Positions 1 to 16,203 of a DNA stretch of 64,000 nucleotides are shown piece by piece. The stretch's first letter is position 1. Each line of letters starts with the position of its first letter. The notes beneath the pieces were generated by a model, which did no database searches, was not told the DNA's origin, and worked only from the letters and a program-made list of their open reading frames with translations. Both the position numbers and the translations under genes were made by a program. The stretch covers positions 1-64,000 of the IMG/VR virus record IMGVR_UViG_2718218131_000011; one strand, 5' to 3'. The stretch is from a virus (taxonomy: Duplodnaviria > Heunggongvirae > Uroviricota > Caudoviricetes).

Positions 1-1014
1 ATGAAAACCGCCACTGCGCCGTTACCACCGCTGCGTTCGGTCAAGGTTCTGGACCAGTTGCGTGAGCGCATACGCTACTTGCATTACAGCTTACCAACCG
101 AACAGGCTTATGTCCACTGGGTTCGTGCCTTCATCCGTTTCCACGGTGTGCGTCACCCGGCAACCTTGGGCAGCAGCGAAGTCGAGGCATTTCTGTCCTG
201 GCTGGCGAACGAGCGCAAGGTTTCGGTCTCCACGCATCGTCAGGCATTGGCGGCCTTGCTGTTCTTCTACGGCAAGGTGCTGTGCACGGATCTGCCCTGG
301 CTTCAGGAGATCGGAAGACCTCGGCCGTCGCGGCGCTTGCCGGTGGTGCTGACCCCGGATGAAGTGGTTCGCATCCTCGGTTTTCTGGAAGGCGAGCATC
401 GTTTGTTCGCCCAGCTTCTGTATGGAACGGGCATGCGGATCAGTGAGGGTTTGCAACTGCGGGTCAAGGATCTGGATTTCGATCACGGCACGATCATCGT
501 GCGGGAGGGCAAGGGCTCCAAGGATCGGGCCTTGATGTTACCCGAGAGCTTGGCACCCAGCCTGCGCGAGCAGCTGTCGCGTGCACGGGCATGGTGGCTG
601 AAGGACCAGGCCGAGGGCCGCAGCGGTGTTGCGCTTCCCGACGCCCTTGAGCGGAAGTATCCGCGCGCCGGGCATTCCTGGCCGTGGTTCTGGGTTTTTG
701 CGCAGCACACGCATTCGACCGATCCACGGAGCGGTGTCGTGCGTCGCCATCACATGTATGACCAGACCTTTCAGCGCGCCTTCAAACGTGCCGTAGAACA
801 AGCAGGCATCACGAAGCCCGCCACACCGCACACCCTCCGCCACTCGTTCGCGACGGCCTTGCTCCGCAGCGGTTACGACATTCGAACCGTGCAGGATCTG
901 CTCGGCCATTCCGACGTCTCTACGACGATGATTTACACGCATGTGCTGAAAGTTGGCGGTGCCGGAGTGCGCTCACCGCTTGATGCGCTGCCGCCCCTCA
1001 CTAGTGAGAGGTAG
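1..1014 (+). CDS. intI1: Class 1 integron integrase IntI1 (tyrosine recombinase), complete 337 aa
   Basis: Translation [29 protein letters not shown]... with C-terminal [16 protein letters not shown] recombinase motif matches IntI1 as I recall it; ORF starts at window position 1. Confidence 0.95.
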
Positions 1015-1191
1015 GGCAGCGCAAGTCAATCCTGGCGGATTCACTACCCCTGCGCGAAGGCCATCGGTGCCGCATCGAACGGCCGGTTGCGGAAAGTCCT
1101 CCCTGCGTCCGCTGATGGCCGGCAGCAGCCCGTCGTTGCCTGATGGATCCAACCCCTCCGCTGCTATAGTGCAGTCGGCTTCTGACGTTCA

Positions 1192-1216
1192 GTGCAGCCG
1201 TCTTCTGAAAACGACA
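1192..1216. repeat. 25-bp IRi terminal inverted repeat of class 1 integron
   Basis: GTGCAGCCGTCTTCTGAAAACGACA is the reverse complement of the IRi sequence TGTCGTTTTCAGAAGACGGCTGCAC. Confidence 0.8.
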
Positions 1217-1567
1217 ATGGAGGTGGTAGCCGAGGGTGTGGAAACACCCGACTGCCTTGCGTGGTTGCGGCAGGCGGGTTGCGACACGGTGCAGGGTTTC
1301 CTGTTCGCCAGGCCGATGCCGGCGGCGGCCTTCGTCGGCTTCGTCAACCAATGGAGGAACACCACCATGAACGCCAATGAACCGAGCACCAGTTGCTGCG
1401 TGTGCTGCAAGGAAATCCCGCTCGATGCCGCCTTCACGCCGGAAGGGGCCGAGTACGTGGAGCATTTCTGCGGGCTGGAGTGCTATCAGCGCTTCCAGGC
1501 GCGGGCCAGCACTGCGACCGAAACCAGCGTCAAACCGGACGCTTGTGATTCGCCGCCGCCAGGTTGA
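1217..1567 (+). CDS. tnpM: TnpM / urf2 C-terminal EAL-domain remnant
   Basis: 116-aa [31 protein letters not shown]... starting immediately after IRi, as in Tn21 where In2 interrupts urf2. Confidence 0.75.
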
Positions 1568-1692
1568 GGCATACCCTAACCTGATGTCAGATGCCATGTG
1601 TAAATTGCGTCAGGATAGGATTGAATTTTGAATTTATTGACATATCTCGTTGAAGGTCATAGAGTCTTCCCTGACATTTTGCAGGGAATTCC
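1568..1692 (+). promoter_or_regulatory. res resolution site region of Tn21 family
   Basis: Intergenic segment directly upstream of tnpR containing TGTCAGATGCCATGTGTAAATTGCGTCAGGATAGGA-type subsites; position as in Tn21/Tn501. Confidence 0.55.
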
Positions 1693-2253
1693 ATGACTGG
1701 ACAGCGCATTGGGTATATCAGGGTCAGCACCTTCGACCAGAACCCGGAACGGCAACTGGAAGGCGTCAAGGTTGATCGCGCTTTTAGCGACAAGGCATCC
1801 GGCAAGGATGTCAAGCGTCCGCAACTGGAAGCGCTGATAAGCTTCGCCCGCACCGGCGACACCGTGGTGGTGCATAGCATGGATCGCCTGGCGCGCAATC
1901 TCGATGATTTGCGCCGGATCGTGCAAACGCTGACACAACGCGGCGTGCATATCGAATTCGTCAAGGAACACCTCAGTTTTACTGGCGAAGACTCTCCGAT
2001 GGCGAACCTGATGCTCTCGGTGATGGGCGCGTTCGCCGAGTTCGAGCGCGCCCTGATCCGCGAGCGTCAGCGCGAGGGTATTGCGCTCGCCAAGCAACGC
2101 GGGGCTTACCGTGGCAGGAAGAAATCCCTGTCGTCTGAGCGTATTGCCGAACTGCGCCAACGTGTCGAGGCTGGCGAGCAAAAGACCAAGCTTGCTCGTG
2201 AATTCGGAATCAGTCGCGAAACCCTGTATCAATACTTGAGAACGGATCAGTAA
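1693..2253 (+). CDS. tnpR: Serine resolvase TnpR
   Basis: 186 aa, N-terminal [11 protein letters not shown] catalytic serine motif and C-terminal HTH; Tn21 TnpR-like. Confidence 0.95.
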
Positions 2254-2255
2254 AT

Positions 2256-5222
2256 ATGCCACGTCGTTCCATCCTGTCCGCCGCCGAGCGGGAAAGCCTG
2301 CTGGCGTTGCCGGACTCCAAGGACGACCTGATCCGACATTACACATTCAACGATACCGACCTCTCGATCATCCGACAGCGGCGCGGGCCAGCCAATCGGC
2401 TGGGCTTCGCGGTGCAGCTCTGTTACCTGCGCTTTCCCGGCGTCATCCTGGGCGTCGATGAACTACCGTTCCCGCCCTTGTTGAAGCTGGTCGCCGACCA
2501 GCTCAAGGTCGGCGTCGAAAGCTGGAACGAGTACGGCCAGCGGGAGCAGACCCGGCGCGAGCACCTGAGCGAGCTGCAAACCGTGTTCGGTTTCCGGCCC
2601 TTCACCATGAGCCATTACCGGCAGGCCGTCCAGATGCTGACCGAGCTGGCGATGCAAACCGACAAAGGCATCGTGCTGGCCAGCGCCTTGATCGGGCACC
2701 TGCGGCGGCAGTCGGTCATTCTGCCCGCCCTCAACGCCGTCGAGCGGGCGAGTGCCGAGGCGATCACCCGTGCTAACCGGCGCATCTACGACGCCTTGGC
2801 CGAACCACTGGCGGACGCGCATCGCCGCCGCCTCGACGATCTGCTCAAGCGCCGGGACAACGGCAAGACGACCTGGTTGGCTTGGTTGCGCCAGTCTCCG
2901 GCCAAGCCAAATTCGCGGCATATGCTGGAACACATCGAACGCCTCAAGGCATGGCAGGCACTCGATCTGCCTACCGGCATCGAGCGGCTGGTTCACCAGA
3001 ACCGCCTGCTCAAGATTGCCCGCGAGGGCGGCCAGATGACACCCGCCGACCTGGCCAAATTCGAGCCGCAACGGCGCTACGCCACTCTCGTGGCGCTGGC
3101 CACCGAGGGCATGGCCACCGTCACCGACGAAATCATCGACCTGCACGACCGCATCCTGGGTAAGCTGTTTAACGCTGCCAAGAATAAGCATCAGCAGCAG
3201 TTCCAGGCGTCAGGCAAGGCCATCAACGCCAAGGTACGTCTGTACGGGCGCATCGGTCAGGCGCTGATCGACGCCAAGCAATCAGGCCGCGATGCGTTTG
3301 CCGCCATCGAGGCCGTCATGTCCTGGGATTCCTTTGCCGAGAGCGTCACCGAGGCGCAGAAGCTCGCGCAACCCGATGACTTCGATTTCCTGCATCGCAT
3401 CGGCGAGAGCTACGCCACCCTGCGCCGCTATGCACCGGAATTCCTTGCCGTGCTCAAGCTGCGGGCCGCGCCCGCCGCCAAAAACGTGCTTGATGCCATT
3501 GAGGTGCTGCGCGGCATGAACACCGACAACGCCCGCAAGCTGCCAGCCGATGCACCGACCGGCTTCATCAAGCCGCGCTGGCAGAAACTGGTGATGACCG
3601 ACGCCGGCATCGACCGGCGCTACTACGAACTGTGCGCGCTGTCCGAGTTGAAGAACTCCCTGCGCTCGGGCGACATCTGGGTGCAGGGTTCACGCCAGTT
3701 CAAGGACTTCGAGGACTACCTGGTACCGCCCGAGAAGTTCACCAGCCTCAAGCAGTCCAGCGAATTGCCGCTGGCCGTGGCCACCGACTGCGAACAATAT
3801 CTGCATGAGCGGCTGACGCTGCTGGAAGCACAACTTGCCACCGTCAACCGCATGGCGGCAGCCAACGACCTGCCGGATGCCATCATCACCGAGTCGGGCT
3901 TGAAGATCACGCCGCTGGATGCGGCGGTGCCCGACACCGCGCAGGCGCTGATAGACCAGACAGCCATGGTCCTGCCGCACGTCAAGATCACCGAACTGCT
4001 GCTCGAAGTCGATGAGTGGACGGGCTTCACCCGGCACTTCACGCACTTGAAATCGGGCGATCTGGCCAAGGACAAGAACCTGTTGTTGACCACGATCCTG
4101 GCCGACGCGATCAACCTGGGCCTGACCAAGATGGCCGAGTCCTGCCCCGGCACGACCTACGCGAAGCTCGCTTGGCTGCAAGCCTGGCATACCCGCGACG
4201 AAACGTACTCGACAGCGTTGGCTGAACTGGTCAACGCTCAGTTTCGGCATCCCTTTGCCGGGCACTGGGGCGATGGCACCACATCATCATCGGACGGACA
4301 GAATTTCCGAACCGCTAGCAAGGCAAAGAGCACGGGGCACATCAACCCAAAATATGGCAGCAGCCCAGGACGGACTTTCTACACCCACATCTCCGACCAA
4401 TACGCGCCATTCCACACCAAGGTGGTCAATGTCGGCCTGCGCGACTCAACCTACGTGCTCGACGGCCTGCTGTACCACGAATCCGACCTGCGGATCGAGG
4501 AGCACTACACCGACACGGCGGGCTTCACCGATCACGTCTTCGCCCTGATGCACCTCTTGGGCTTCCGCTTCGCGCCGCGCATCCGCGACCTGGGCGACAC
4601 CAAGCTCTACATCCCGAAGGGCGATGCCGCCTATGACGCGCTCAAGCCGATGATCGGCGGCACGCTCAACATCAAGCACGTCCGCGCCCATTGGGACGAA
4701 ATCCTGCGGCTGGCCACCTCGATCAAGCAGGGCACGGTGACGGCCTCGCTGATGCTCAGGAAACTCGGCAGCTACCCGCGCCAGAACGGCTTGGCCGTCG
4801 CGCTGCGCGAGTTGGGCCGCATCGAGCGCACGCTGTTCATCCTCGACTGGCTGCAAAGCGTCGAGCTACGCCGCCGCGTGCATGCCGGGCTGAACAAGGG
4901 CGAGGCGCGCAATGCGCTGGCCCGTGCCGTGTTCTTCAACCGCCTTGGTGAAATCCGTGACCGCAGTTTCGAGCAGCAGCGCTACCGGGCCAGCGGCCTC
5001 AACCTGGTGACGGCGGCCATCGTGCTGTGGAACACGGTCTACCTGGAGCGTGCGGCGCATGCGTTGCGCGGCAATGGTCATGCCGTCGATGACTCGCTAT
5101 TGCAGTACCTGTCGCCACTCGGCTGGGAGCACATCAACCTGACCGGTGATTACCTATGGCGCAGCAGCGCCAAGATCGGCGCGGGGAAGTTCAGGCCGCT
5201 ACGGCCTCTGCAACCGGCTTAG
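2256..5222 (+). CDS. tnpA: Tn3/Tn21-family transposase TnpA
   Basis: 988-aa ORF directly downstream of tnpR in the same orientation, ending inside the terminal inverted repeat. Confidence 0.95.
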
Positions 5223-5255
5223 CGTGCTTTATTTTCCGTTTTCTGAGACGACCCC
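5218..5255. repeat. 38-bp terminal inverted repeat of Tn21-family transposon
   Basis: CTTAGCGTGCTTTATTTTCCGTTTTCTGAGACGACCCC is the reverse complement of the Tn21 IR GGGGTCGTCTCAGAAAACGGAAAATAAAGCACGCTAAG. Confidence 0.85.
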
Positions 5256-5511
5256 AAGAAGCACGGCGCGGTTTTGCTAAAGTGATGTCTGAGTTTGGCG
5301 AATTTTTGGGGCACGTTGACAAAGCCCTCTCAATCAGTTCAGCAAGGTCCAAAGCATTAACAGCTTCCATGATGAAATAAAAAAAGCCTGGCAAGGAGCC
5401 AGGCTGCACAAAAGAGCGGGTTTGTATTCCGCATCCAATCAATCAAGAAGGAGTATAGCACACAGGTACTGAAGTGAAAAAATGTGATTCGCGATAAACA
5501 AAATATCTACC

Positions 5512-5626: not shown

Positions 5627-6187
5627 ATGAAAACAATCGAACAAAAAATTGAACAGCACCGTAAGTGGCAGAAGGCAGCCAGAGAACGAGCGATCGCTCG
5701 GCAACGGGAGAAGTTGGCTGATCCGGCCTGGCGAGAATCTCAATATCAGAAAATGCGGAATACTATCGACCGCCGTATCGCTAAACAGAAAGAGCGCCCA
5801 CCAGCCAGCAAAACGTGGAAAAGCGCGGTAAAAATAAAATCTCGTGGCTTGAAGGGACGAACACCGACGGCGGAGGAGCGGCGCATAGCCAATGCTCTTG
5901 GCGCTCTCCCCTGCATTGCCTGCTATATGCATGGAGTAATATCTGAAGAGGTGTCTCTGCACCATATCTCCGGTCGTACCGCGCCTGGTTGTCACAAAAA
6001 GCAATTGCCACTTTGTAGATGGCACCACCAGCATGCAGCACCGGCTGAAGTAAGAGAAAAATACCCCTGGCTGGTCCCTGTTCATGCCGATGGTGTGGTT
6101 GGAGGCAAGAAAGAATTCACCTTGCTGAACAAGTCAGAGATGGAGTTGCTGGCTGACGCCTATGAGATGGCAAACATAATGCACTAA
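5627..6187 (+). CDS. ref: Recombination enhancement function Ref (HNH endonuclease family)
   Basis: 186 aa starting MKTIEQKIEQHRKWQKAARERA; Cys/His-rich HNH-like core CYMHGV...LHHISGR...CRWHH; recognised as P1 Ref. Confidence 0.85.
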   Translation: MKTIEQKIEQHRKWQKAARERAIARQREKLADPAWRESQYQKMRNTIDRRIAKQKERPPASKTWKSAVKIKSRGLKGRTPTAEERRIANALGALPCIACYMHGVISEEVSLHHISGRTAPGCHKKQLPLCRWHHQHAAPAEVREKYPWLVPVHADGVVGGKKEFTLLNKSEMELLADAYEMANIMH

Positions 6188-6376
6188 TAAATATATTATT
6201 TTTAATCTGAAATAATTGACAACTGACAAGTGACTTCAGTCAGAATCATCACATGCCCGGTACGGATGGATCCCTTTTCAAATATTCCATGGACGGCACA
6301 GTCTGAGTACCGGGCGCTACCTTCAGTTGTATTGCTAAGCCGCCGCTGGTGGCTTTTCTTTTTTATAAGGGGCGCT

Positions 6377-7018
6377 ATGGATAAGAAAATATGCGTTGTT
6401 TCGATGAGCGTCGGCAAACCGGCGTCAATGACTGCCGCATGGATCAACAATGAGCTGATAATGGCTGAGCGGACCAGCTACCCTGAACGCCGCCGCGATA
6501 TGGAACTCCAGCTGCTGCGCGAATTGCGAGAAAAAGAGGAAAAGGGTTTTATCGTGCTGGTGGAAGAGGAAAACAGCTTTATTACGGGTCGAGTTGGCCA
6601 GCGTGTAAGGTTGCGCGATCCCTTCATGAACGGCAGGCCGGTACTAATTGAAGCAATGCAGATTTACAAGGAGCTGGAACGCCAGAAAGCGATCAAGTTA
6701 CCGCGCAAAGAATCCGGCAAATACATCCTCCACCAAAGCATCTTCGATTCCGAACACGACAAAAAAGGCGATGAATTTTTCAACATCAACTGGAGCGAAA
6801 TAACGACAGAGCACGTTCTGTCGTTGTTATGCTGCTTCGCAACGGAATATAACAACGTTGCAAGCGCCGACTACATCAGGGCAATGGCTGGAGAAGTTGA
6901 GGCTCGCCAGGAACCATCGTTACTAAGCCCTCTGATTAACATAATTCGCGGAACCCAATGTCTAGCCGACAAGCGAGTTCCTCAAGGCTTACTTACCGGC
7001 AAAGAAAACTATTTATAA
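6377..7018 (+). CDS. Hypothetical protein at the position of P1 mat
   Basis: 213-aa ORF from MDKKICVV; backbone-like base composition; no recognisable motifs. Confidence 0.4.
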   Translation: MDKKICVVSMSVGKPASMTAAWINNELIMAERTSYPERRRDMELQLLRELREKEEKGFIVLVEEENSFITGRVGQRVRLRDPFMNGRPVLIEAMQIYKELERQKAIKLPRKESGKYILHQSIFDSEHDKKGDEFFNINWSEITTEHVLSLLCCFATEYNNVASADYIRAMAGEVEARQEPSLLSPLINIIRGTQCLADKRVPQGLLTGKENYL

Positions 7019-7047
7019 TTAATTACGTCAGTAGCCAATAGAGATTT

Positions 7048-7080
7048 TTGTTGTGGAACAAAAATATATATTTTACAATC
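7048..7080 (+). promoter_or_regulatory. Putative sigma70 promoter of the two-gene cassette
   Basis: TTGTGG (-35), 17-bp spacer, TACAAT (-10) about 30 bp upstream of the cassette start; GGGGGA ribosome-binding site before the ATG. Confidence 0.3.
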
Positions 7081-7108
7081 TAGTAACTTTGGGTGGGGGA
7101 TTATTACA

Positions 7109-8149
7109 ATGATGAATATTAAGCCGCTGAAAATTAGGAACAAGGTCATGAAGCCTCATAAAGCATTATTAAACCCTGACCTAACCGCAAGGAATGTACT
7201 TACATACAGTCATTGGGATTTTGTCGAACTCTGGTTAAAGCGAAACGAAAAAGATGAGGCTCTTTTTTATTGGGAGCAAGCAAAAGTATTTAATCAGGCG
7301 GCCAATGGTTTACCCAACCAATCAGCCCCACTTTTGCACTATTATTCATTCATGAATGCAGTAAAGGCGTTACTTTCATCTCGCAATATAAACTTCAAAC
7401 AGCATCATGGTGTTGCTAGGGGTGAAAATGCAGCCCAAATTGATAACTTATCTGATATAAAAGTAAAAATAAAAAATGAGGGTATACTTCCGTCTTTTTC
7501 AAAATATATTGACGGCACCTCTCATGAGGGGGTGTACAATATAAAAAACCTTTTTTCTGGATTGCCATATATTCATCGTACATATTGCCTTACTTATGAT
7601 GTAACTGATGATATATTTATTCCACTGATCGATGCTGAGTTCGTTTTGAATGAGTCAGACAATAGCCTGTTTTTCACTGCGATTTTATCCAAGGATTTTC
7701 GGTTCGACACAGTTTTCGACATTCTACCGCCAGCGTTCGAATTGTTTGAAAGAGAAAAGTACAAAATAAAATCAGTAGAATCATTACTTGATTATAATGA
7801 AAATCAATCGTCCAACATGCCGCAATTAACTGAATTTCATAAAAAAATAAGAAGAAATCTTTACTATATCAATGGCGCAGAGACTCTTTGGTATCTCAAA
7901 CGTAAAAACAATCAATCTGAGCATACTTCTGTTTCAATATCGCCATTGGTTATAACCCTAGCAGCTATGCATCGATTAAGTGAGCTATGTCGGTATGACC
8001 CACTTAAGCTAAGACAGTTACTAAATGAAAAAGAAAACTGGATTATTGCTGAATTTATTCAACAATCTCCGTCACAGTTTATAGATGCAATTTCATCTGA
8101 AATTACTGGACACCAATTTCTTATCCCAAACGTAAGGTCTGCTTCTTAA
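7109..8149 (+). CDS. Hypothetical 346-aa protein, cassette component A
   Basis: Long ORF in strongly AT-rich DNA with a good RBS; predicted largely helical, no TM segment; no family recognised by eye (a weak R-x6-H element near residue 250 is the only HEPN-like hint). Confidence 0.7.
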   Translation: MMNIKPLKIRNKVMKPHKALLNPDLTARNVLTYSHWDFVELWLKRNEKDEALFYWEQAKVFNQAANGLPNQSAPLLHYYSFMNAVKALLSSRNINFKQHHGVARGENAAQIDNLSDIKVKIKNEGILPSFSKYIDGTSHEGVYNIKNLFSGLPYIHRTYCLTYDVTDDIFIPLIDAEFVLNESDNSLFFTAILSKDFRFDTVFDILPPAFELFEREKYKIKSVESLLDYNENQSSNMPQLTEFHKKIRRNLYYINGAETLWYLKRKNNQSEHTSVSISPLVITLAAMHRLSELCRYDPLKLRQLLNEKENWIIAEFIQQSPSQFIDAISSEITGHQFLIPNVRSAS

Positions 8150-8658
8150 TGAATATATATATCGCATGCGCTTTAACTCATGTTCCAAGGGAAATTTTCC
8201 ATGAGTACAGTAATTGGATTCACAGCCTTGCAAAAGGTCTATCTCAAAATAACAACGTAAAATATGCTTTGATAAATAGTGACCCAGAATTATCAAAGCG
8301 CCCTGAAAGTAACAAATCTAGACTTTGTTACATTTGGGACAGAGATATGGTTGAGAAATCTGATGTAATAATTGCAGAATGTAGTTTTCCATCAACAGGG
8401 CTAGGAATAGAGTTGCAGATTGCTGAACAGAAGAACATTCCTGTAATCATCTGTTATAAAGATTATGGGATAAATAAAACTAAAACCATTGAATACGTGA
8501 ATCCAGATGAGACTACCCATAATCTACAAGTTGGCGAGGGTTTCATTTCTCATATGGTATTAGGACTACCAAACATCCTTGATGTCATATTATGTAAAGA
8601 TATTGATAACACATGCAGGAAGCTAAAAATACTGTTAGATATGATTAACCATAATTAA
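8149..8658 (+). CDS. Nucleoside 2-deoxyribosyltransferase / DNPH1-like fold protein, cassette component B
   Basis: 169 aa; N-terminal MNIYIACAL strand and PSTGLGIELQIAEQKNIPVI motif resemble the NDT/DNPH1 signature (GLGMELGYA in Lactobacillus NDT, recalled from memory); start codon overlaps the stop of component A (TAATG). Confidence 0.65.
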   Translation: MNIYIACALTHVPREIFHEYSNWIHSLAKGLSQNNNVKYALINSDPELSKRPESNKSRLCYIWDRDMVEKSDVIIAECSFPSTGLGIELQIAEQKNIPVIICYKDYGINKTKTIEYVNPDETTHNLQVGEGFISHMVLGLPNILDVILCKDIDNTCRKLKILLDMINHN

Positions 8659-8688
8659 AAATTAACACCCACTTAAGATGTCTAAACC

Positions 8689-8708
8689 AGCCCGGTATTA
8701 ACCGGGCT
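8689..8708. terminator. Stem-loop between the convergent cassette and lxc-like gene
   Basis: AGCCCGGT-ATTA-ACCGGGCT 8-bp perfect stem; no clear T-tract. Confidence 0.35.
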
Positions 8709-8716
8709 AGACAAAC

Positions 8717-8965
8717 TTAATCAGCATTCAGGAGCAATGCATTATCTATGATGATTTGCTCCCATTCTTCGAATGCCCGGTCGCGGACGCCCTGGGGAAC
8801 GCTGTTAGTTTTGAAATCGACGACCGTACGCCATTTCCCGTCCGGACGGTACATGCGCAGAGCTTTACTTCCCCCCTCCCTGCGCACCTCAACGTTATGC
8901 TTATCAGCAAACTCTTGTAATGCTCGTAGCGTCCCATGCTTTACTGTGTAGTATCGCTTTTTCAA
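8717..8965 (-). CDS. Small protein at the P1 Lxc position
   Basis: 82-aa ORF last in the darB-containing leftward operon; name by position and size only. Confidence 0.45.
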   Translation of the reverse strand: MKKRYYTVKHGTLRALQEFADKHNVEVRREGGSKALRMYRPDGKWRTVVDFKTNSVPQGVRDRAFEEWEQIIIDNALLLNAD

Positions 8966-9402
8966 GTTTTCTCTCCAGCCTGTGCTAAGGCTTCAACTTC
9001 CAAATCGTAAGACTCAAACTCATAGTCCTGGTCGTCAACCTCTTCAGGCACTGGCAGTAAATGCCAGGCTGAGTATATCTGACCATTATCAAAACGCTCC
9101 TGGCTGTAGAGCGTCGCGGCTATGAGCGTCAGCGCCGGGCGGTCATAACGGTAAATTTTGCGAACGTCACGGTCAACGAGACGACCGAAATTACCATAAC
9201 CGCGCTCCAGTAATAATTTTTTAATTTCCGGCCAGTATGGACCATAGCTGCGGTACAGACGGGGATTTTTCAGTAATCGCCCGCGTAGCCCTGACAGGAA
9301 GAAATCAACGTATTCGTCTTCTGTCTTTCCTAACAACGCTGTACGGAGCACCGCCTCAAGATATGTTTTATTCGGTTTTATTGTATCAGATAGTGTGGCC
9401 AT
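8962..9402 (-). CDS. P1 Ulx-like protein
   Basis: 146-aa ORF between darB and the lxc-like gene on the same strand; name by position and size only. Confidence 0.45.
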   Translation of the reverse strand: MATLSDTIKPNKTYLEAVLRTALLGKTEDEYVDFFLSGLRGRLLKNPRLYRSYGPYWPEIKKLLLERGYGNFGRLVDRDVRKIYRYDRPALTLIAATLYSQERFDNGQIYSAWHLLPVPEEVDDQDYEFESYDLEVEALAQAGEKT

Positions 9403-9435
9403 ATTATGCGACGCCCGGCGAACCGGGCGCTCCTG

Positions 9436-12400
9436 TTATGCGTATTGTTGGATGACGGCCAGAACGTCCGCCACGTTGTGTTTTGTCTCGATAATCCACC
9501 AGTTACCCGGGAAATCGCTGTTCTTCGCCTTCGCTGGCAGCCAGCGAGCGCCGAATTTCGCCTTGATTGCGTCTTTCGCACGGAAAAGAATGCCTTTCAT
9601 GCCGGAGGCTTCCTGAAGCCCAAATACCTCGCCAGCGGCGAATTTTGGTGCGTACATCATCTTCAGGTCGGCGGTGGATACGCGATAATTCAGACCAAGA
9701 GACTGAGCTATGCTGGTGGCATCACCCTGTATTGATGATAACTCTTCTTGTTTCTCGTTTCTGGCGGCAATTTCTTCCTCCGTGATGTTGCCAAGGGCCA
9801 GGTTTATCCGATCAGCGTCTGCCTGTTTCTCTTCATCGGTGCGACCGGCAAGTGCCGTGTTAATTCTCTGCAATATCTCCACATGATTCTTGCGCATGCT
9901 GAGCAATTCCGGCGTAACCTCGTTAAGGTCCACCAGCCCAAGAATGGCAAGGTCAGAAAACATTGATACCAGGTTGTAGGTCATGCGATAGCTGAGTTGA
10001 CCATAGGCTGATGGCAACTTCACCGCATCCATTTGATAGGCATCCATAAATTTAGAGCCGTCGTTTACGACATCCGCAATTGCAGGTGTGATTTTCCCTG
10101 TGGTGGCGGCCTCCCTGATTGCTGTTACCCACGATTGAGTCAGCGCGGCGACTGCATGATTCAGATTGGCTTCCCGTTCTGCTGCAATGCGCGCACTTGC
10201 TGCGTCCATTGCCTGCTTGATCTCGTCTTTATTGCTGTAAATGCCAATGGTGCCAAACTGTGCTGTGGTGATCTCATAATCTGACGCCCGGAACTCATTG
10301 GTACCGAAAATGGCATTGGTGACTTCAAGTTCAGAATCCCCGTTACGAGTAGCCCCCTGGCTTGTTTTTTCCGGCATTCTGGCGATCGCATCCGCTATTT
10401 TCTCCTGAATTGCTTCAGGGGATAGCGTATCTCCGTATGACGCGATTACATCGCCATAATTGGAGCCAAACAATTCAACCAGGAATGTTTCTGCCGAACG
10501 GATCTGGCGGTTATTCCCTTCCGACATCATACCAAGCACCCATTTTGCAATTGACGACTTCAGCGCGCCGTCACGGCGATCCGGGTAAATCGCATGCTTC
10601 AGTGGGTCCGTATAGGTACCAACAAAATCAATGCTATAGCCTGACTCTGTAGTCTGAACGCCGTATGAGTCAGTGATTTTGATCATGCCGCGCTGCTGGA
10701 AACGGTAGAAATCGTCACAGGAAATGATGTCGTTAATCCCGGCGATGGAGACGCCACCACTGATTTTCTGCATAACAGCATCTTCATCGGGAGTTACATC
10801 AACCTGTTTATCCAGCGTCTTCACATCCCAGTTACCCGATTTGGTGCCTTTGAAGGTAAAGATGATCTCCACGTCTGCGCGCTGGCTGTCGAAGTCCAGC
10901 GACTTAATGCGAAAGATATCACCGGCACAATCGTAGTATTGGCCTACACGCCATGAGCGATCGCCGATAACAAGGAACTCATTCGCATGGTTAACCAGAT
11001 CAGGATCAACATCCAGAATGCCTTTATTTATTGCATCCTCCACCAGCGGGCGCAGGCGTTTGATATCCGTCGCGGCCTTCTGAGTACGGTTCAATAATTT
11101 CTCATAGCGGGAGATGGCCTGAGAGATATTAGCCTTGCGCTGAATGGCGCTTTTCAACGACGCGCGATACTGTGCTAACAACATACGGTCTGTGTGATGG
11201 ACACTCCCCCAGCGGGCCTTCCAGTCTGCGTTATCCGCTGCCTTGGCCATTGCCGCCTGTTTGAATTTAGCTACCTCGGCGGTGGTCTTTTCAAGTTCCG
11301 CTTTGCTTCGCTCTAATTCAGCGGTAAGTACCTCCACATCCTCGCCAGCTGCGTGCTGCGCCTTGATGTAGTTCTGAAGGTCGATAGTAGCCTGTTCTTT
11401 CTGGCGAGCGCGTTTCGCAGCTTTCGCCTTATCCATTTGAACCTGCATCATTGCCAGACGTTCGCCGTCATCCTTCGCGGTATACATCTGCATTTCGATC
11501 ATGTCATTGGCGTCGGCGTTCTCCATTTCTGACTTATCTGAACGGAGGATATCGGAGATCCAGCCTGCTTTACGCTTCAGCGTCTTCAGTCGGTATTCAT
11601 CGAAAGACCCCTTGCCGCAGTAGTAGTGAACGCGAACGCTTGCACGGTTGGAACCAACTCGGGCACCGCGACCGTTACGCTGTGCGATACTGGCTGGTGT
11701 CCACGGCAACGTCAGGTGGTGGATATCCGTCGTTCCTCGATGCAGGTTGATACCCACCTCTGCCTTTTTGTTGCAGATGATGATCGGAGTCCGGCCCTCC
11801 TGGAAGTCGGCTGCAATCTTTTCCAGACCGCCCAACGACATTTCATTTTGCTGCGCGATATAGGCGTCATACAGAGCCATTTGCTCGTTGTATTTCGCTA
11901 TCTGTGCATCTGTTGGTTCATCCGGTAGCTCTTTCGGCGGTTTAACCGCTTTCAGTTTCTTACCGGTTTTACCTGCCTCGGCAACCGTCTGAGCATTCAG
12001 GATCCCCACCTTTGAAGGTTCAAGGTTTAGAGCATTGCAGATAATGCGCTTGAGCTTCTGGTGCTGCGTTTTTTCATCGGTGAAGATGATTTGCTTACCT
12101 TCCGGGAAAAACTCCTTCAGCGTGGCGATCAGCTTCGCGTATTTCGGCGTAACGGGGTGAGTTACGGTCTGTTCGTCAATGCCAAACCTGGCCAGGCGCT
12201 TATTCACTTCCTGCTCGAACGCTTCCGGAACCTGCAACTGAATAAACTCGCCCTTATCTATCAGGGAGTATTGCGATTGCTGCGTGATTGAATCATCACT
12301 GTCGTCGTCTTCGCTGGTGGCTTGTTTAGGCAAACTGTCCGCCAGCTGCTGCACCGCATCGGCGTACTCCGGCAGGAAACGATAGGTGATCCGGCGATAG

Positions 12401-15400
12401 TACAGGTCCATGTCAGTACATACGCGGTCCATATCCCTGATTATTGAGAAGATCGGACGGGCTTTCTCGTGCTCAATCACGCCGTCTTCATTGACCGAGG
12501 TCGTTACGCCATTGTTGGCTTTTGCCGCCGCTTCCGCCTGCTGACGCAATTCTTCATACGCCGCCAGTTGTTCTTCAGTAAGTGGTGCATCCTGCTGGTG
12601 TTCGTCCAGCTCCGGGATCTCCACGGTATCCTTAACGTCTTCCGCCGTTTTAAGCGTTACCCAGCGATGGAATATACCGCGCAGCGCATCAAGGTTTTCA
12701 AAGCCCACCAGCGCCATTTTTTCTTCAACTTCACCGCTGATTTTCTGTACCGTTTCCAGCCTGGTCTTGCCGAAGAATTTAACGAAGTCATCAGGACCGT
12801 AGATCCCCATGTTCTGCCAGTATTCCTTCGGCAGAACATGAGAAAGCATGTTGTATGCATCGATCGGGGTGTTAACGACTGGCGTTGCAGTCAGGAGAAC
12901 CGGCCCGCGCCCGCCATTCTTTTTCATCAGGTACGCGTTTTTAATTGCCATATCTCGCGCCGATTGCGCCACCGCGCTGGTGGGCAGATAGGCCAGTTGT
13001 GACGCTTCGCGACCATTTTTATAGCTATTGCGGTAGTTGTGACCTTCGTCAGCGATCACACTATCGAAGCCCATATCCTCAAAGTACGGATACTTCTCTG
13101 CTTTTTCGGTGCCGGTATCTGAATACTCCGACAATACCCGGCGACGCGCAGCCTCTTTGCGGTGGGAGTCGGAGTCCATTGCGCTGGCTACGCGCCCGGC
13201 GGCAACGAAGTCATAAAGCATATCCTGTGCATGCTCATCTACGGTGTCATCACGTAGCGGAATGCGGGCGTATTGTTCTTTGGTAAACACGACTGCACGG
13301 TAATTTGAGTGCGGGATCGCGTTCATCCGCGCCGTGATAGTGGCTTCATCTGCCAGCTTAAGAGCATCGCGCATAACTGGAGTGCCATCAGTACCAAGAA
13401 CAGGTTTACCGTTCTCATCGAGCACCGGCACCTGGCGAATCTGATCGCCATCCATCAGCACATCAAGACCGACGAACAGGTAGTTACTGAATGCCTCTTC
13501 ACTCAGGAACTCTTTTGCTTCGTAATACCAGTTTTCCAGCACTGCTTTAGGCACTACATAAGCAGTACGGGTGGAGCGACCGTTCTCATAGTTGAACGCC
13601 TCAAGCGCCAGCGCGGTCGTCGTTTTACCCAGCCCGGTGCCGAAGCCCAGGATGCCGCGCCCATCTTCGGACAGTCGGCGCACCTCGCTATTCTGGTAAT
13701 CAAATGGCTGGCGCTTACCGCTTAATCCCTTCAACCCAAGCGGATCGCCAGAGTGTTCATACGGGATATTGCTATTGAACACATCGTTGTATTTGGCAAC
13801 CAACTCATCGTAGCGATCGTGCGTCTTGATCCACTTATTGAACTGGTCCTCAAGCAGTGCCATCTGCTCGCGGTAGCCGTTCGCCGTCGCGCTATCTTTA
13901 CCACCGATACGCGCACCATTGAGATACTTTTCCAGCTGTGCCGGGAACCCGGTCGCGTTTTCACCTGATTTACGGTCCCACTCATAGCGGATCTCGCCTG
14001 TTTCTTTATCCTTGCGCTGGACGACACCGTATCGGTGCCCGACGAACAGACCATCACCACCGTGATAGGTGTCAGAAACCATTTCGTCGCCTTCCAGCTG
14101 CACTGACTGCACATAGCGCAGATCCGGATAGCCGTTTTCCTGCAAAAACTCCAGAATGACGGAGCGGTCGAACCAACGGCTATTGAGCTTAAAGCGGATA
14201 TTCTCTGCTGGCGTCTTGATGCGCTTCTCTTCGATCGCTGCCAGCTGATTAAGGACGTTGTTCTTTACTGGACCATCGGGGAGCGTGGCGAGAAATTCCT
14301 GTTTTGGAGCTACTATCTCGTTAATGTCGCCGCTGGTGGCGCGGGCGAACGGAACAATCCCGCCATACGGCGAAACCGCAATACCAGGGGTGCTGGCCAA
14401 TAAATTAAGCAACTCTTCATCACTGGCTGGCAGTTCGCCGGTAAACGCAAGGCGGAAATCATCGAGCTGGATTGGATCGCGGGTAAGATCGCTATAGAGA
14501 TAACGCAAGGTGTCCTGATAGCTGGTGGAGTCATAACTTGCGCTGGAATCATGCGTAACCAGATTTCCTGTCAGCTCGTCAGAAATAGTGCCATCCAGCT
14601 TAATTGCACCACGGAAAGCAAACCAAGCGCGCGCACCGCTTCCCGATAATTTAGCTATCGGACCGCGACCGGGGTTACCAAAACGGTCAATCTCTGCCTG
14701 CAAACGGGATACCAGAGAAAGGCGCTGCTGTTCGATTTGTTCAGCACTATGCCCGGCGGCCTTCATATCCTGATATTCAATTAACATCCGGCCAATCATC
14801 GCCCCGCGATACAAGCGTTCACGGTATTTTTCAGGCTGGCTGTTAATCCAGTCCACCAGTTGCACCATATCGTCGCTGATTGATGTGGTGTACTTATCGC
14901 GGACATTTGCCATCTGGGTAAATGTCATGCCGAGACGACCTTCTGTGGTAGTCAGGTTACGCTGAAGAGCCTCCCAGCTATCCGCGCCATAACTGGCAAC
15001 ATCAATCTTCAGCTCCTTCCCGGCATCAGCTTCAATCCAGCGACCACCAGCATATTTTTGCCATACGCCATTAATCAGGCGCATTTCCCCTTCATCAACA
15101 ACATCTGCGGTCGGTGACGGTTCAGCCATATCGAGCAAAGACCAGTCGATACGACTTTCGAAACGATGAATCAGCTTCGCTTTAAGAGCCTGGTTATCAA
15201 TCTGCCCGTCGGCACGAACCTCAATACGCCCCTGGAATCCCTTCTCCTGAGTGCCATGAACAAACCGGCGGCCGTCCTTTTCAAACCACTTGCCAGAAAT
15301 AAACGTTGGCCAAAGCACATTTGCCGATTCAAGAGTGCCTTCATCCACCAGGGGGATTTTCTCAGCCATCTCTGCCGGATGTTTACGCATCAGCACCACA

Positions 15401-16203
15401 TCAACGACCGTACTGGTCCCGTTTGCGTCAAAAGTACCGGTAGGCAAGCGGTGAGCGCCAAGAAATTCAGCTTTACGGGATAGGCGCAGGCGTAACCGCT
15501 TCATGTTTGAACCTGAAACAATGGACGGCGGCACAATCACGCACATGAATCCGCCAGGCTTTATCTTGTCCAACATGCGGAGCATGAAGTAAGACCCCAT
15601 GTCCGTTTCTTCTGCGTAAGGTTTATCGATGTTGCGTGTGTTATCACGACCACCGAACGGAACGTTACCCACCACATGGTCGAATGAATCGTTAGGCGTG
15701 CTTACAGCCAGTTGTTCGAACGGGGAAATCTGTACGCTGTCTTCCGGATGTAACAGCTGGTTTATACGACCGGAAACACTGCTGATCTCAGTCGCGGTCA
15801 TCACCGTGCCAACCGGTTTTGTCTCATTAAAAACGCCGGTGCCCGCCGATGGTTCCAGAGTGTTACCTACGTCCGCGCCGTAGAGCTTCATGATCTCCCA
15901 GACACCTTCAGCTATCGGCTTTGGTGTGTAATATTCGGAGACGGACCCGCCAATGCCGCCTTCACCGGTGTACCCAGCCAGGATCTGGCGCTGTTCATCT
16001 GTCAGTGTCGCGCCGTCCACCAGCGAATTAAGCAAATCTATCGCCTTCTGATTCGCCTCACGGCGCAGTCGGTCATAGCTTTTGCCTTCCACCTTTTCCA
16101 CGCCGTATTTAATCGGCGCTCGGTGAGATGTTATTGCCCTAATGTATTTCAATATTTCGCTGACACTTGAACAGCGAAACACCCCCATAGATAGCTTATT
16201 CAT
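9436..16203 (-). CDS. darB: DarB antirestriction protein (methyltransferase plus helicase domains)
   Basis: 2255-aa ORF, the size I recall for P1 DarB; NVPFGG methyltransferase-like motif and DEGH helicase motif (VIADEGHNYRNS) visible. Confidence 0.85.
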   Translation of the reverse strand: MNKLSMGVFRCSSVSEILKYIRAITSHRAPIKYGVEKVEGKSYDRLRREANQKAIDLLNSLVDGATLTDEQRQILAGYTGEGGIGGSVSEYYTPKPIAEGVWEIMKLYGADVGNTLEPSAGTGVFNETKPVGTVMTATEISSVSGRINQLLHPEDSVQISPFEQLAVSTPNDSFDHVVGNVPFGGRDNTRNIDKPYAEETDMGSYFMLRMLDKIKPGGFMCVIVPPSIVSGSNMKRLRLRLSRKAEFLGAHRLPTGTFDANGTSTVVDVVLMRKHPAEMAEKIPLVDEGTLESANVLWPTFISGKWFEKDGRRFVHGTQEKGFQGRIEVRADGQIDNQALKAKLIHRFESRIDWSLLDMAEPSPTADVVDEGEMRLINGVWQKYAGGRWIEADAGKELKIDVASYGADSWEALQRNLTTTEGRLGMTFTQMANVRDKYTTSISDDMVQLVDWINSQPEKYRERLYRGAMIGRMLIEYQDMKAAGHSAEQIEQQRLSLVSRLQAEIDRFGNPGRGPIAKLSGSGARAWFAFRGAIKLDGTISDELTGNLVTHDSSASYDSTSYQDTLRYLYSDLTRDPIQLDDFRLAFTGELPASDEELLNLLASTPGIAVSPYGGIVPFARATSGDINEIVAPKQEFLATLPDGPVKNNVLNQLAAIEEKRIKTPAENIRFKLNSRWFDRSVILEFLQENGYPDLRYVQSVQLEGDEMVSDTYHGGDGLFVGHRYGVVQRKDKETGEIRYEWDRKSGENATGFPAQLEKYLNGARIGGKDSATANGYREQMALLEDQFNKWIKTHDRYDELVAKYNDVFNSNIPYEHSGDPLGLKGLSGKRQPFDYQNSEVRRLSEDGRGILGFGTGLGKTTTALALEAFNYENGRSTRTAYVVPKAVLENWYYEAKEFLSEEAFSNYLFVGLDVLMDGDQIRQVPVLDENGKPVLGTDGTPVMRDALKLADEATITARMNAIPHSNYRAVVFTKEQYARIPLRDDTVDEHAQDMLYDFVAAGRVASAMDSDSHRKEAARRRVLSEYSDTGTEKAEKYPYFEDMGFDSVIADEGHNYRNSYKNGREASQLAYLPTSAVAQSARDMAIKNAYLMKKNGGRGPVLLTATPVVNTPIDAYNMLSHVLPKEYWQNMGIYGPDDFVKFFGKTRLETVQKISGEVEEKMALVGFENLDALRGIFHRWVTLKTAEDVKDTVEIPELDEHQQDAPLTEEQLAAYEELRQQAEAAAKANNGVTTSVNEDGVIEHEKARPIFSIIRDMDRVCTDMDLYYRRITYRFLPEYADAVQQLADSLPKQATSEDDDSDDSITQQSQYSLIDKGEFIQLQVPEAFEQEVNKRLARFGIDEQTVTHPVTPKYAKLIATLKEFFPEGKQIIFTDEKTQHQKLKRIICNALNLEPSKVGILNAQTVAEAGKTGKKLKAVKPPKELPDEPTDAQIAKYNEQMALYDAYIAQQNEMSLGGLEKIAADFQEGRTPIIICNKKAEVGINLHRGTTDIHHLTLPWTPASIAQRNGRGARVGSNRASVRVHYYCGKGSFDEYRLKTLKRKAGWISDILRSDKSEMENADANDMIEMQMYTAKDDGERLAMMQVQMDKAKAAKRARQKEQATIDLQNYIKAQHAAGEDVEVLTAELERSKAELEKTTAEVAKFKQAAMAKAADNADWKARWGSVHHTDRMLLAQYRASLKSAIQRKANISQAISRYEKLLNRTQKAATDIKRLRPLVEDAINKGILDVDPDLVNHANEFLVIGDRSWRVGQYYDCAGDIFRIKSLDFDSQRADVEIIFTFKGTKSGNWDVKTLDKQVDVTPDEDAVMQKISGGVSIAGINDIISCDDFYRFQQRGMIKITDSYGVQTTESGYSIDFVGTYTDPLKHAIYPDRRDGALKSSIAKWVLGMMSEGNNRQIRSAETFLVELFGSNYGDVIASYGDTLSPEAIQEKIADAIARMPEKTSQGATRNGDSELEVTNAIFGTNEFRASDYEITTAQFGTIGIYSNKDEIKQAMDAASARIAAEREANLNHAVAALTQSWVTAIREAATTGKITPAIADVVNDGSKFMDAYQMDAVKLPSAYGQLSYRMTYNLVSMFSDLAILGLVDLNEVTPELLSMRKNHVEILQRINTALAGRTDEEKQADADRINLALGNITEEEIAARNEKQEELSSIQGDATSIAQSLGLNYRVSTADLKMMYAPKFAAGEVFGLQEASGMKGILFRAKDAIKAKFGARWLPAKAKNSDFPGNWWIIETKHNVADVLAVIQQYA

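Follow-up and report, generated by a model that had tools for sequence, protein, structure and literature searches.

What does the small AT-rich insert between the mat and lxc genes of a P1-like phage-plasmid do? The question concerns positions 7019-8716 of a 64,000-nucleotide stretch of DNA (the window; positions 1 to 64,000 of the IMG/VR virus record IMGVR_UViG_2718218131_000011), a 1.7-kb cassette consisting of two translationally coupled genes on the plus strand, open reading frame (ORF) A followed by ORF B. The cassette had been proposed, in what is referred to here as the original prediction, to be a candidate undescribed defence or counter-defence module. The results presented below make it moderately probable that it is a prophage-borne two-protein anti-phage module residing in a mat-lxc hotspot and composed of a nucleotide N-glycosidase effector, ORF B, and a YaaC-family protein, ORF A. 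Such a module is a new, unnamed combination of known types of parts, a HEPN-fold protein and an enzyme of the nucleoside 2-deoxyribosyltransferase (NDT)/DNPH1 fold.

The cassette differs strongly from its surroundings in base composition: the guanine+cytosine (GC) fraction is 0.34-0.37 across 7050-8700, in comparison to 0.48-0.51 in mat and approximately 0.50 in lxc, ulx and darB. The mat gene ends with its stop codon at 7016-7018, and the convergent lxc gene on the minus strand with its own at 8717-8719. When the window was compared by BLAST with eight P1-like elements, the backbone homology ended at 7018 (at 6958 for RCS47 and at 7031 for SJ46) and restarted at 8716-8719. Since the homology stops and restarts exactly there, the interval originally delimited as the cassette corresponds to the boundaries of the cargo, and both its description as a two-gene AT-rich unit and the claim that it was acquired are borne out by the ORF coordinates, the GC profile and the sharp homology breakpoints. 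The predicted coupling of a 346-amino-acid (aa) and a 169-aa gene was likewise confirmed, as the stop codon of ORF A (7109-8149, plus strand) and the start codon of ORF B (8149-8658, plus strand) overlap in a TAATG sequence (8146-8150, plus strand) with one A shared by both ORFs.

In P1 (NC_005856) the place of the cassette is taken by the EcoP1I res/mod genes together with IS5, as the original prediction had held, and the comparison of P1-like elements demonstrated a variable hotspot. Nothing is inserted between mat and lxc in RCS47, whereas SJ46 carries a 373-aa RelA/SpoT gene, CP088811 and CP057753 encode a SIR2 family protein, CP057851 a DUF2971 protein, CP099125 and CP098980 an EAL-domain protein with a hypothetical protein, and CP057289 contains glgS and a DUF1449 gene. 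Phage SJ46 is stated to encode CapRel-SJ46, a validated system (PMC9712102), and the RelA/SpoT gene at the mat-lxc site of SJ46 is presumably CapRel. The same site with conserved flanks thus accommodates differing systems in related elements, among them validated defence systems, as is characteristic of defence-hotspot cargo. The EcoP1I type III restriction-modification (R-M) system and CapRel-SJ46 share with the cassette the site and the flanks, each with its own hairpin before lxc, but the proteins and mechanisms are unrelated.

The CP057289.1 allele (L105, 4166-7500) retains the first ~170 nucleotides (nt) of the cassette (7019-7188) and the last ~214 nt (8503-8716), with ~2.95 kb of other DNA, encoding glgS and DUF1449, between the retained ends. 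This locus looks like a decayed or overwritten copy of the cassette, and an overwritten copy would mean that alleles are replaceable from within.

Both genes also occur outside P1-like elements. Within the ORF B family, identities of 45-70 % were found between members from Enterobacteria, Bradyrhizobium, Rhodospirillaceae and Chryseobacterium. The YaaC/ORF B pair ranges from Enterobacteria to Bacteroidota, Planctomycetota and Alphaproteobacteria, and yaaC lay directly upstream of the ORF B homologue, often with a 1-base overlap, in all the contexts looked up. A YaaC profile scan of one genome per GTDB species gave 125 confirmed loci in many phyla, of which 80 were kept. An ORF B homologue was found directly downstream, at -20 to +54 nt and mostly with a 1- or 4-nt overlap, in 42 of 79 such loci, and the other 37 represent a more distant, solo YaaC clade. 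An overlap of 1 or 4 nt, or a gap of at most 54 nt, was recorded in 49 homologous loci. In the opposite direction, yaaC was directly upstream in 71 of the 74 metagenome loci that were seeded with ORF B and had enough upstream sequence, and in all five viral contigs of IMG/VR carrying ORF B. The exceptions include an insertion sequence upstream of the ORF B homologue (L159) and, as the one clear exception, a metagenome contig (L123, 1280-2811) in which yaaC is replaced by a gene for a 339-aa dCTP-deaminase homologue (PDB 2qxx, E 2e-18); this gene overlaps the start of ORF B, and its product is extended at the C-terminus by a hydrophobic stretch. The link of ORF B to YaaC is therefore nearly obligate, whereas YaaC can also occur by itself.

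The neighbours of paired loci match GajA/GajB (Gabija), PycC and PycTM (Pycsar), dGTPase, reverse transcriptase-TIR (RT-TIR) proteins, type III methylases and E1-E2, and further PADLOC candidate (PDC) systems, integrases and transposases. An E. coli chromosomal YaaC/NDT pair (L091-L094), 59 % identical, lies in an integrase-bounded island, where it is flanked on one side by the integrase, BrxR and Wadjet type III and, directly downstream, by a Dpd cluster. Solo yaaC genes were found within a type I R-M operon in the order HsdM-YaaC-HsdS (L044, 8367-12330), before a gene for an Mrr-type nuclease (L080, 9455-12104) and overlapping a gene for a PD-T4-6-type Ser/Thr kinase (E 2e-141; L050, 1249-3656), and the commonest families next to them are N6_Mtase and HsdM_N. 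Because the solo genes pair with a kinase, with hsdM/hsdS or with an Mrr nuclease, YaaC appears to be a reusable module with variable partners. As the pair is conserved across phyla and often stands beside known defence genes, a defence function is favoured.

The E. coli island also holds a PDC-S11 candidate and an HNH nuclease, and its Dpd cluster, which is responsible for 7-deazaguanine DNA modification, includes QueD. Deazaguanine chemistry and a nucleotide N-glycosidase may be connected here.

The proposed effector, ORF B, gave a structure model (predicted local distance difference test score, pLDDT, 95.9) of a single domain with the Rossmann-like NDT fold, for which Foldseek ranked DNPH1, BcmB and MilB first, with NDT also among the top fold matches. 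A profile of 38 ORF B homologues matched Rcl/DNPH1 in PDB (E 4e-5). In the HMMER alignment D64, S82 and E88 fall on the Rcl Asp, Ser and Glu in 'D..W...PSLGVGYELG', the ORF B segment PSTGLGIELQIA being paired with PSLGVGYELGRA of Rcl across the P-S-x-G loop that precedes the Glu, and Y4 is located at position 2 of the Pfam Nuc_deoxyrib_tr model. The NDT/DNPH1-like signature announced for this protein was thus upheld by the fold matches and by the Rcl alignment. In the 38 homologues Y4, D64 and E88 never vary and S82 is kept in at least 90 %, so that the family possesses the active-site Glu, Asp and Tyr as well as the phosphate-binding Ser of DNPH1/MilB. We take the Glu to be the nucleophile, the Asp and Tyr to be active-site residues and the Ser to bind the 5'-phosphate; the second Ser, which the dimer partner contributes, may have its counterpart in the conserved motif S/T-x-M-x-x-G (134-139). 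ORF B is accordingly a predicted nucleoside-5'-monophosphate N-glycosidase. Its family is very small, with 34 clusters found at E<=1e-30 in a set of 1.84 billion representatives; some of the homologues have a precomputed PF05014 match, and no fused YaaC-NDT protein was found among the homologues.

A sister clade of ORF B (proteins P0293-P0363) combines an NDT-like domain with C-terminal extensions of 100-350 residues and displays the motifs GGITxVP, CYxxDQ, PSTGTGQELERA and SxMVxGNP. In 15 of its proteins the extension is of one and the same type, with no Pfam or PADLOC match. Their size had suggested retron effectors, and this idea was dropped, since the clade gave no PADLOC or Pfam match and showed no similarity to YaaC.

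The partner, ORF A, had been described as unplaceable in any family, which proved wrong: residues 34-332 align to positions 18-307 of the 307-position Pfam PF14175 (YaaC) model with E 1.5e-45 and 156.4 bits (cut-off 27), and the RefSeq name of the protein is 'YaaC family protein'. Its AlphaFold model, based on a 36-sequence alignment (pLDDT 91.3), has an up-and-down bundle of four helices (49-65, 73-91, 279-296 and 310-333), i.e. a predicted HEPN-like core, split by an alpha/beta insert of ~170 residues (~100-265) for which no relative stood out among the structural matches. In both the solo and the paired clade one helix is conserved (M287-H288-R289-L-S291-E292-x-x-R295-Y296-x-P298), and H100, H156, R157, R248, E315 and E331 are kept in at least 90 % of members of each. 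The residues D326, Q336, N341 and R343 near the C-terminus are retained only in the clade paired with ORF B, and the last four residues of ORF A (343-346) are predicted to be disordered. The tail of the paired-clade YaaC is therefore a candidate docking tail, through which the two proteins might interact physically.

According to the favoured interpretation, the cassette would be lysogenic-conversion cargo of the superinfection-exclusion or abortive-infection type. ORF A, as the conserved core, would sense infection and gate the ORF B glycosidase, and ORF B would cleave nucleoside 5'-monophosphates, or a closely related nucleotide, at the N-glycosidic bond. The effector role is assigned to ORF B because its catalytic residues are strictly kept, and a nucleoside 5'-monophosphate is the most likely substrate because the DNPH1-type phosphate-binding Ser is conserved. 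Nucleotides needed by the infecting phage would in this way be destroyed, e.g. deoxynucleoside monophosphates (dNMPs) recovered from broken-down host DNA, or modified precursors at the dNMP level. ORF A, with its His/Arg-rich conserved site and large inserted domain, may itself be an RNase, given that YaaC relatives also occur alone.

Phages such as T4, T5, T7 and similar ones recycle host DNA as dNMPs, and some of them modify bases at the dNMP level. That a dNMP glycosidase would harm such phages more than the host is an attractive but unproven idea. The association of an ORF B homologue with a dCTP-deaminase homologue in L123 is counted in favour of this nucleotide-pool logic. In its most detailed form, the proposal is that a DNPH1-like N-glycosidase gated by YaaC removes the bases of dNMPs, be these salvaged from the degraded DNA of the host or modified precursors such as hydroxymethyl-dCMP (hm-dCMP) or hm-dUMP, and that phage DNA synthesis collapses; this version is offered tentatively, as a doubtful one. 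If true, it would be the founding example of an immune mechanism acting at the level of nucleoside monophosphates and would link bacterial immunity to human DNPH1.

Several observations weigh against reading the cassette as a defence module of this kind. The neighbourhood counts have no matched control and are to be taken as supportive, not quantitative, and many of the neighbours are ordinary genes. PADLOC-DB 2.0.0 returned zero families at E<=1 for ORF A or ORF B, and PHROGs and NCBIfam no usable match for either protein, which agrees with the original remark that neither resembles a restriction enzyme, a methyltransferase or a well-known abortive-infection protein. ORF B scores 22.1 bits against Pfam Nuc_deoxyrib_tr, below the gathering threshold of 28.8. 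The conserved Rx4-6H motif is absent from ORF A homologues in the solo and paired clades alike, and profile searches of PDB sequences linked YaaC to HEPN neither with the full protein nor with the spliced helical core. Pfam scans of ORF A (E<=1 to 10) and of the spliced core gave YaaC only, and the HHblits match to Retron_IX HEPN reported by DefensePredictor has a probability of 52 and 16 % coverage. The HEPN link is for this reason structural only, and since the Rx4-6H motif is missing ORF A is called a HEPN-fold protein on the strength of its predicted structure and not a proven or canonical HEPN RNase. The promoter scan gave no sigma-70 consensus site upstream of ORF A. In Bacillus subtilis yaaC neighbours guaB in a conserved housekeeping region close to the origin, so that a defensive role need not apply to all YaaC proteins. 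Finally, sensor and effector are not separable from sequence.

The last point underlies the main rival explanation, which keeps the defence function and reverses the roles: YaaC would be the killing, HEPN-type RNase, and ORF B would bind nucleotides as a sensor or regulator, or act as a brake like an antitoxin, in the manner of the CARF and SLOG domains that control HEPN or SIR2 effectors. A fold resembling HEPN in ORF A suits this arrangement. The full catalytic set of ORF B (Tyr, Asp, Ser and Glu), invariant or nearly so, argues for catalysis over mere binding, and YaaC does not have the canonical motif of the RNase it would have to be. Reversed roles are thus considered unlikely.

The cassette might instead be a toxin-antitoxin (TA), or addiction, module, whose main role would be to stabilize the phage-plasmid by post-segregational killing. 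This is quite improbable, in spite of the plasmid state of the element, as most homologues are chromosomal and share their islands with R-M, Gabija, Pycsar or Wadjet genes, ORF A and ORF B are larger than the members of typical TA pairs, and sister elements carry anti-phage systems at the same hotspot. TA and defence roles are not mutually exclusive. The cassette itself was detected in 77 PLSDB plasmids at a minimum of 80 % cover of a 1.9-kb query, mostly with at least 99 % identity; lxc-ulx is present in 699 PLSDB plasmids, so that approximately 11 % of PLSDB P1-like plasmids carry the cassette. It was found in 106 of 5426 complete E. coli genomes (~2 %), nearly always on plasmids.

The original prediction had left counter-defence open beside defence, and the hotspot, the conservation and the neighbours favour defence. 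For counter-defence, the N-glycosidase would destroy host immune signalling nucleotides or repair the nucleotide pool, thereby aiding P1 infection; N-glycosidases could in principle inactivate nucleotide signals, and the cassette is phage-borne and adjoins the darB/ulx antirestriction genes. The adjacency of darB is, however, a feature of the backbone common to all alleles, and the sister alleles at mat-lxc are defence genes. The pair is widespread in bacterial chromosomes of many phyla and rare in viral contigs: IMG/VR contains five contigs with the pair, three of which are the same P1-like element, and the cassette was found in none of the INPHARED phage records. This overwhelming prevalence in chromosomes (80 loci kept out of 125 confirmed in genomes, versus five IMG/VR contigs) speaks against counter-defence, which is rated highly improbable. 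Hardly credible, finally, is an accessory role in nucleotide metabolism or sanitation, i.e. removal of non-canonical NMPs (nucleoside monophosphates) or dNMPs as by animal DNPH1 with no role in conflict, for although the closest solved relatives (DNPH1, MilB, BcmB and NDT) are metabolic and B. subtilis yaaC lies beside guaB, the genes are distributed patchily, as if by horizontal transfer, the ORF B family is very small, the genes associate with integrases, transposases and defence genes, and the pair here is AT-rich cargo in a prophage hotspot.

With an anti-phage module as the preferred interpretation, the cassette was compared with known systems. DNPH1/Rcl (2'-deoxynucleoside 5'-phosphate N-hydrolase, also a 5-hydroxymethyl-dUMP N-hydrolase) and the bacterial CMP/hydroxymethyl-CMP N-glycosidases MilB and BcmB are the nearest solved enzymes, and ORF B is only 13-20 % identical to them. 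DNPH1 has a Gly-rich phosphate loop, at the position of which ORF B has the N-terminal loop ACALTHVPR. ORF B differs from DNPH1, MilB and BcmB also in an extra conserved beta-hairpin (Y116-x-NPD-x3-H-x-LQ-x-G-x-G) and in being mobile and encoded, almost always, behind a yaaC gene.

An NDT-fold protein serves as the anti-phage effector of Retron-Eco1 (Ec86), type II-A. The likeness to ORF B lies in the fold of the effector, and the difference in the partner, which here is YaaC. The neighbours of the cassette are mat and lxc, with no reverse transcriptase or non-coding RNA beside it and no Rfam match in 6000-9600, and retron effectors appeared neither as a PADLOC match of ORF B nor among its top 50-60 structural matches. 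Nucleotide-depletion defences are exemplified by dCTP deaminase and dGTPase, with which the proposed module would share the principle that the phage is starved of DNA precursors; a dGTPase is found among the neighbours of the pair, and the dCTP-deaminase homologue in L123. Those enzymes act on deoxynucleoside triphosphates, by deamination and triphosphohydrolysis, whereas ORF B would remove the base, most likely at the monophosphate level.

Effectors of type VIII Thoeris contain a 'CMP hydrolase' domain hypothesised to manipulate the nucleotide pool (bioRxiv 10.64898/2025.12.03.692087). ThsI of this type (CMP-hydrolase plus TPR) resembles ORF B in that a MilB/DNPH1-type domain is proposed as a nucleotide-pool immune effector, the mechanism being hypothesised in both cases. 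ThsI is controlled through its TPR by a cyclic ADP-ribose (cADPR) signal made by a TIR protein, whereas the cassette has no TIR gene and its partner is a HEPN-fold YaaC; there is no adjacent TIR-domain ThsB, and ORF B is a single-domain protein of 169 aa with no TPR. The 2013 survey of HEPN proteins described NDT domains fused to Abi N-terminal domains, proposed to be toxins, and does not mention YaaC (Anantharaman et al. 2013, PMC3710099). HEPN abortive-infection proteins from R-M and defence loci (the PrrC/RloC, AbiV, AbiU2 and pEK499_p136 types) differ from ORF A, which has no profile link to them, lacks their Rx4-6H motif and has its core split by the insert.

The description of the module as undescribed held in part. 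No paper on the family was found: the literature searches gave none that joins YaaC with anti-phage activity or HEPN, and no mention of PF14175, 'YaaC-like' or 'YaaC family'. A YaaC protein is, however, already listed as a predicted defence gene, since Table S10 of the machine-learning screen DefensePredictor (Science 2026, PMC13092281) contains WP_059338150.1, 'Predicted novel defense gene', with a mean log-odds of 11.04. This entry is a 346-aa E. coli 'YaaC family protein' (PMC13092281), and its length, name and host suggest that it is identical with ORF A. The entry does not appear in the DefensePredictor tables of screened units and validated domains (PMC13092281).

If the cassette defends, the widespread YaaC family (PF14175) would gain its first function, a new effector chemistry would be added to the nucleotide-pool defences, in which a relative of human DNPH1 removes the base of nucleoside monophosphates, and the mat-lxc interval would be a site at which immune cargo is swapped (type III R-M, the SJ46 RelA/SpoT gene, SIR2 and YaaC/NDT). 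Many of the plasmids with the cassette also carry resistance transposons, so the module may affect phage therapy and phage typing of clinical and farm isolates.

The ends of the cassette were analyzed for signals of expression. The leader (7019-7108, plus strand) contains a 16-nt inverted repeat (arms 7037-7052 and 7057-7072) and a weak -35/-10 pair, followed at 7091-7099 by a G-rich Shine-Dalgarno stretch. The promoter-like element of the original prediction corresponds to the pair picked by eye, TTGTGG at 7051-7056 and TACAAT at 7074-7079 with a 17-nt spacer, which matches at 8 of 12 positions; the part of the claim that would require a sigma-70 consensus call was not upheld by the scan. The predicted hairpin before the convergent lxc gene is real: the GC-rich structure (8680-8712; core arms 8689-8696 and 8701-8708) has a folding free energy of -21.2 kcal/mol (z -5.9) on the plus strand and -25.4 kcal/mol (z -4.7) on the minus strand. 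The hairpin lacks a T-run and was not called by the terminator scan, and the consensus promoter and terminator scans gave nothing at either end of the cassette. A different GC hairpin is present at the same place in RCS47 and in SJ46. No Rfam match was obtained in 6000-9600 and no meaningful tandem repeats at the cassette, hence no hidden RNA component is indicated.

On the left side, the last ~20 codons of mat (6959-7018, plus strand) depend on the cargo allele, as judged by the homology breakpoints: identity stops at 6958 with RCS47, reaches 7018 with P1 and with the SIR2 and DUF2971 alleles, and extends to 7031 with SJ46. Since these codons vary by allele, the left recombination boundary lies inside mat and the C-terminus of Mat travels with the cargo. 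Arrival by transposition was disfavoured, flanking direct repeats having not been found at the cassette. Exchange by recombination is more likely, because the breakpoints coincide with the ends of backbone genes and such repeats were not found. The mat 3' ends of the window (6959-7018), L089 (3408-3467) and L090 (5670-5729) differ according to the hotspot allele, and the window and SJ46 have a similar Mat end ('AACTATTTATAAT').

On the right side, outside the cassette, the backbone (8717-16203, minus strand) comprises lxc (8717-8965), ulx (8962-9402) and darB (9436-16203), all on the minus strand, as established from the ORFs, the annotation of identical plasmids and of P1, and 97-99 % identity to P1-like elements.

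Control of the cassette by the P1 C1 repressor was considered and rejected: six operator-like sites are present in the window and none at the cassette, the nearest being the Omat-like site at 6178. The matches to the C1 operator consensus lie at 6178-6194, 16133, 19984, 46179, 47838 and 62040, six in comparison to ~0.3 expected by chance, and one of them occupies the Omat position upstream of mat. Their presence would fit an element whose P1-type immunity circuit is intact.

The left part of the window (1-5260) is 99.9 % identical to CP057753.1, in which the equivalent region is annotated as encoding the class 1 integron integrase intI1, a DUF3330 gene, a recombinase and a TnAs3-family Tn3 transposase (988 aa, GC ~62 %). 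The P1 backbone restarts at ~5258, just upstream of ref. A resistance-type transposon is thus located ~1.8 kb from the mat-lxc hotspot, and the related Tn1721 is found at the same place in SJ46.

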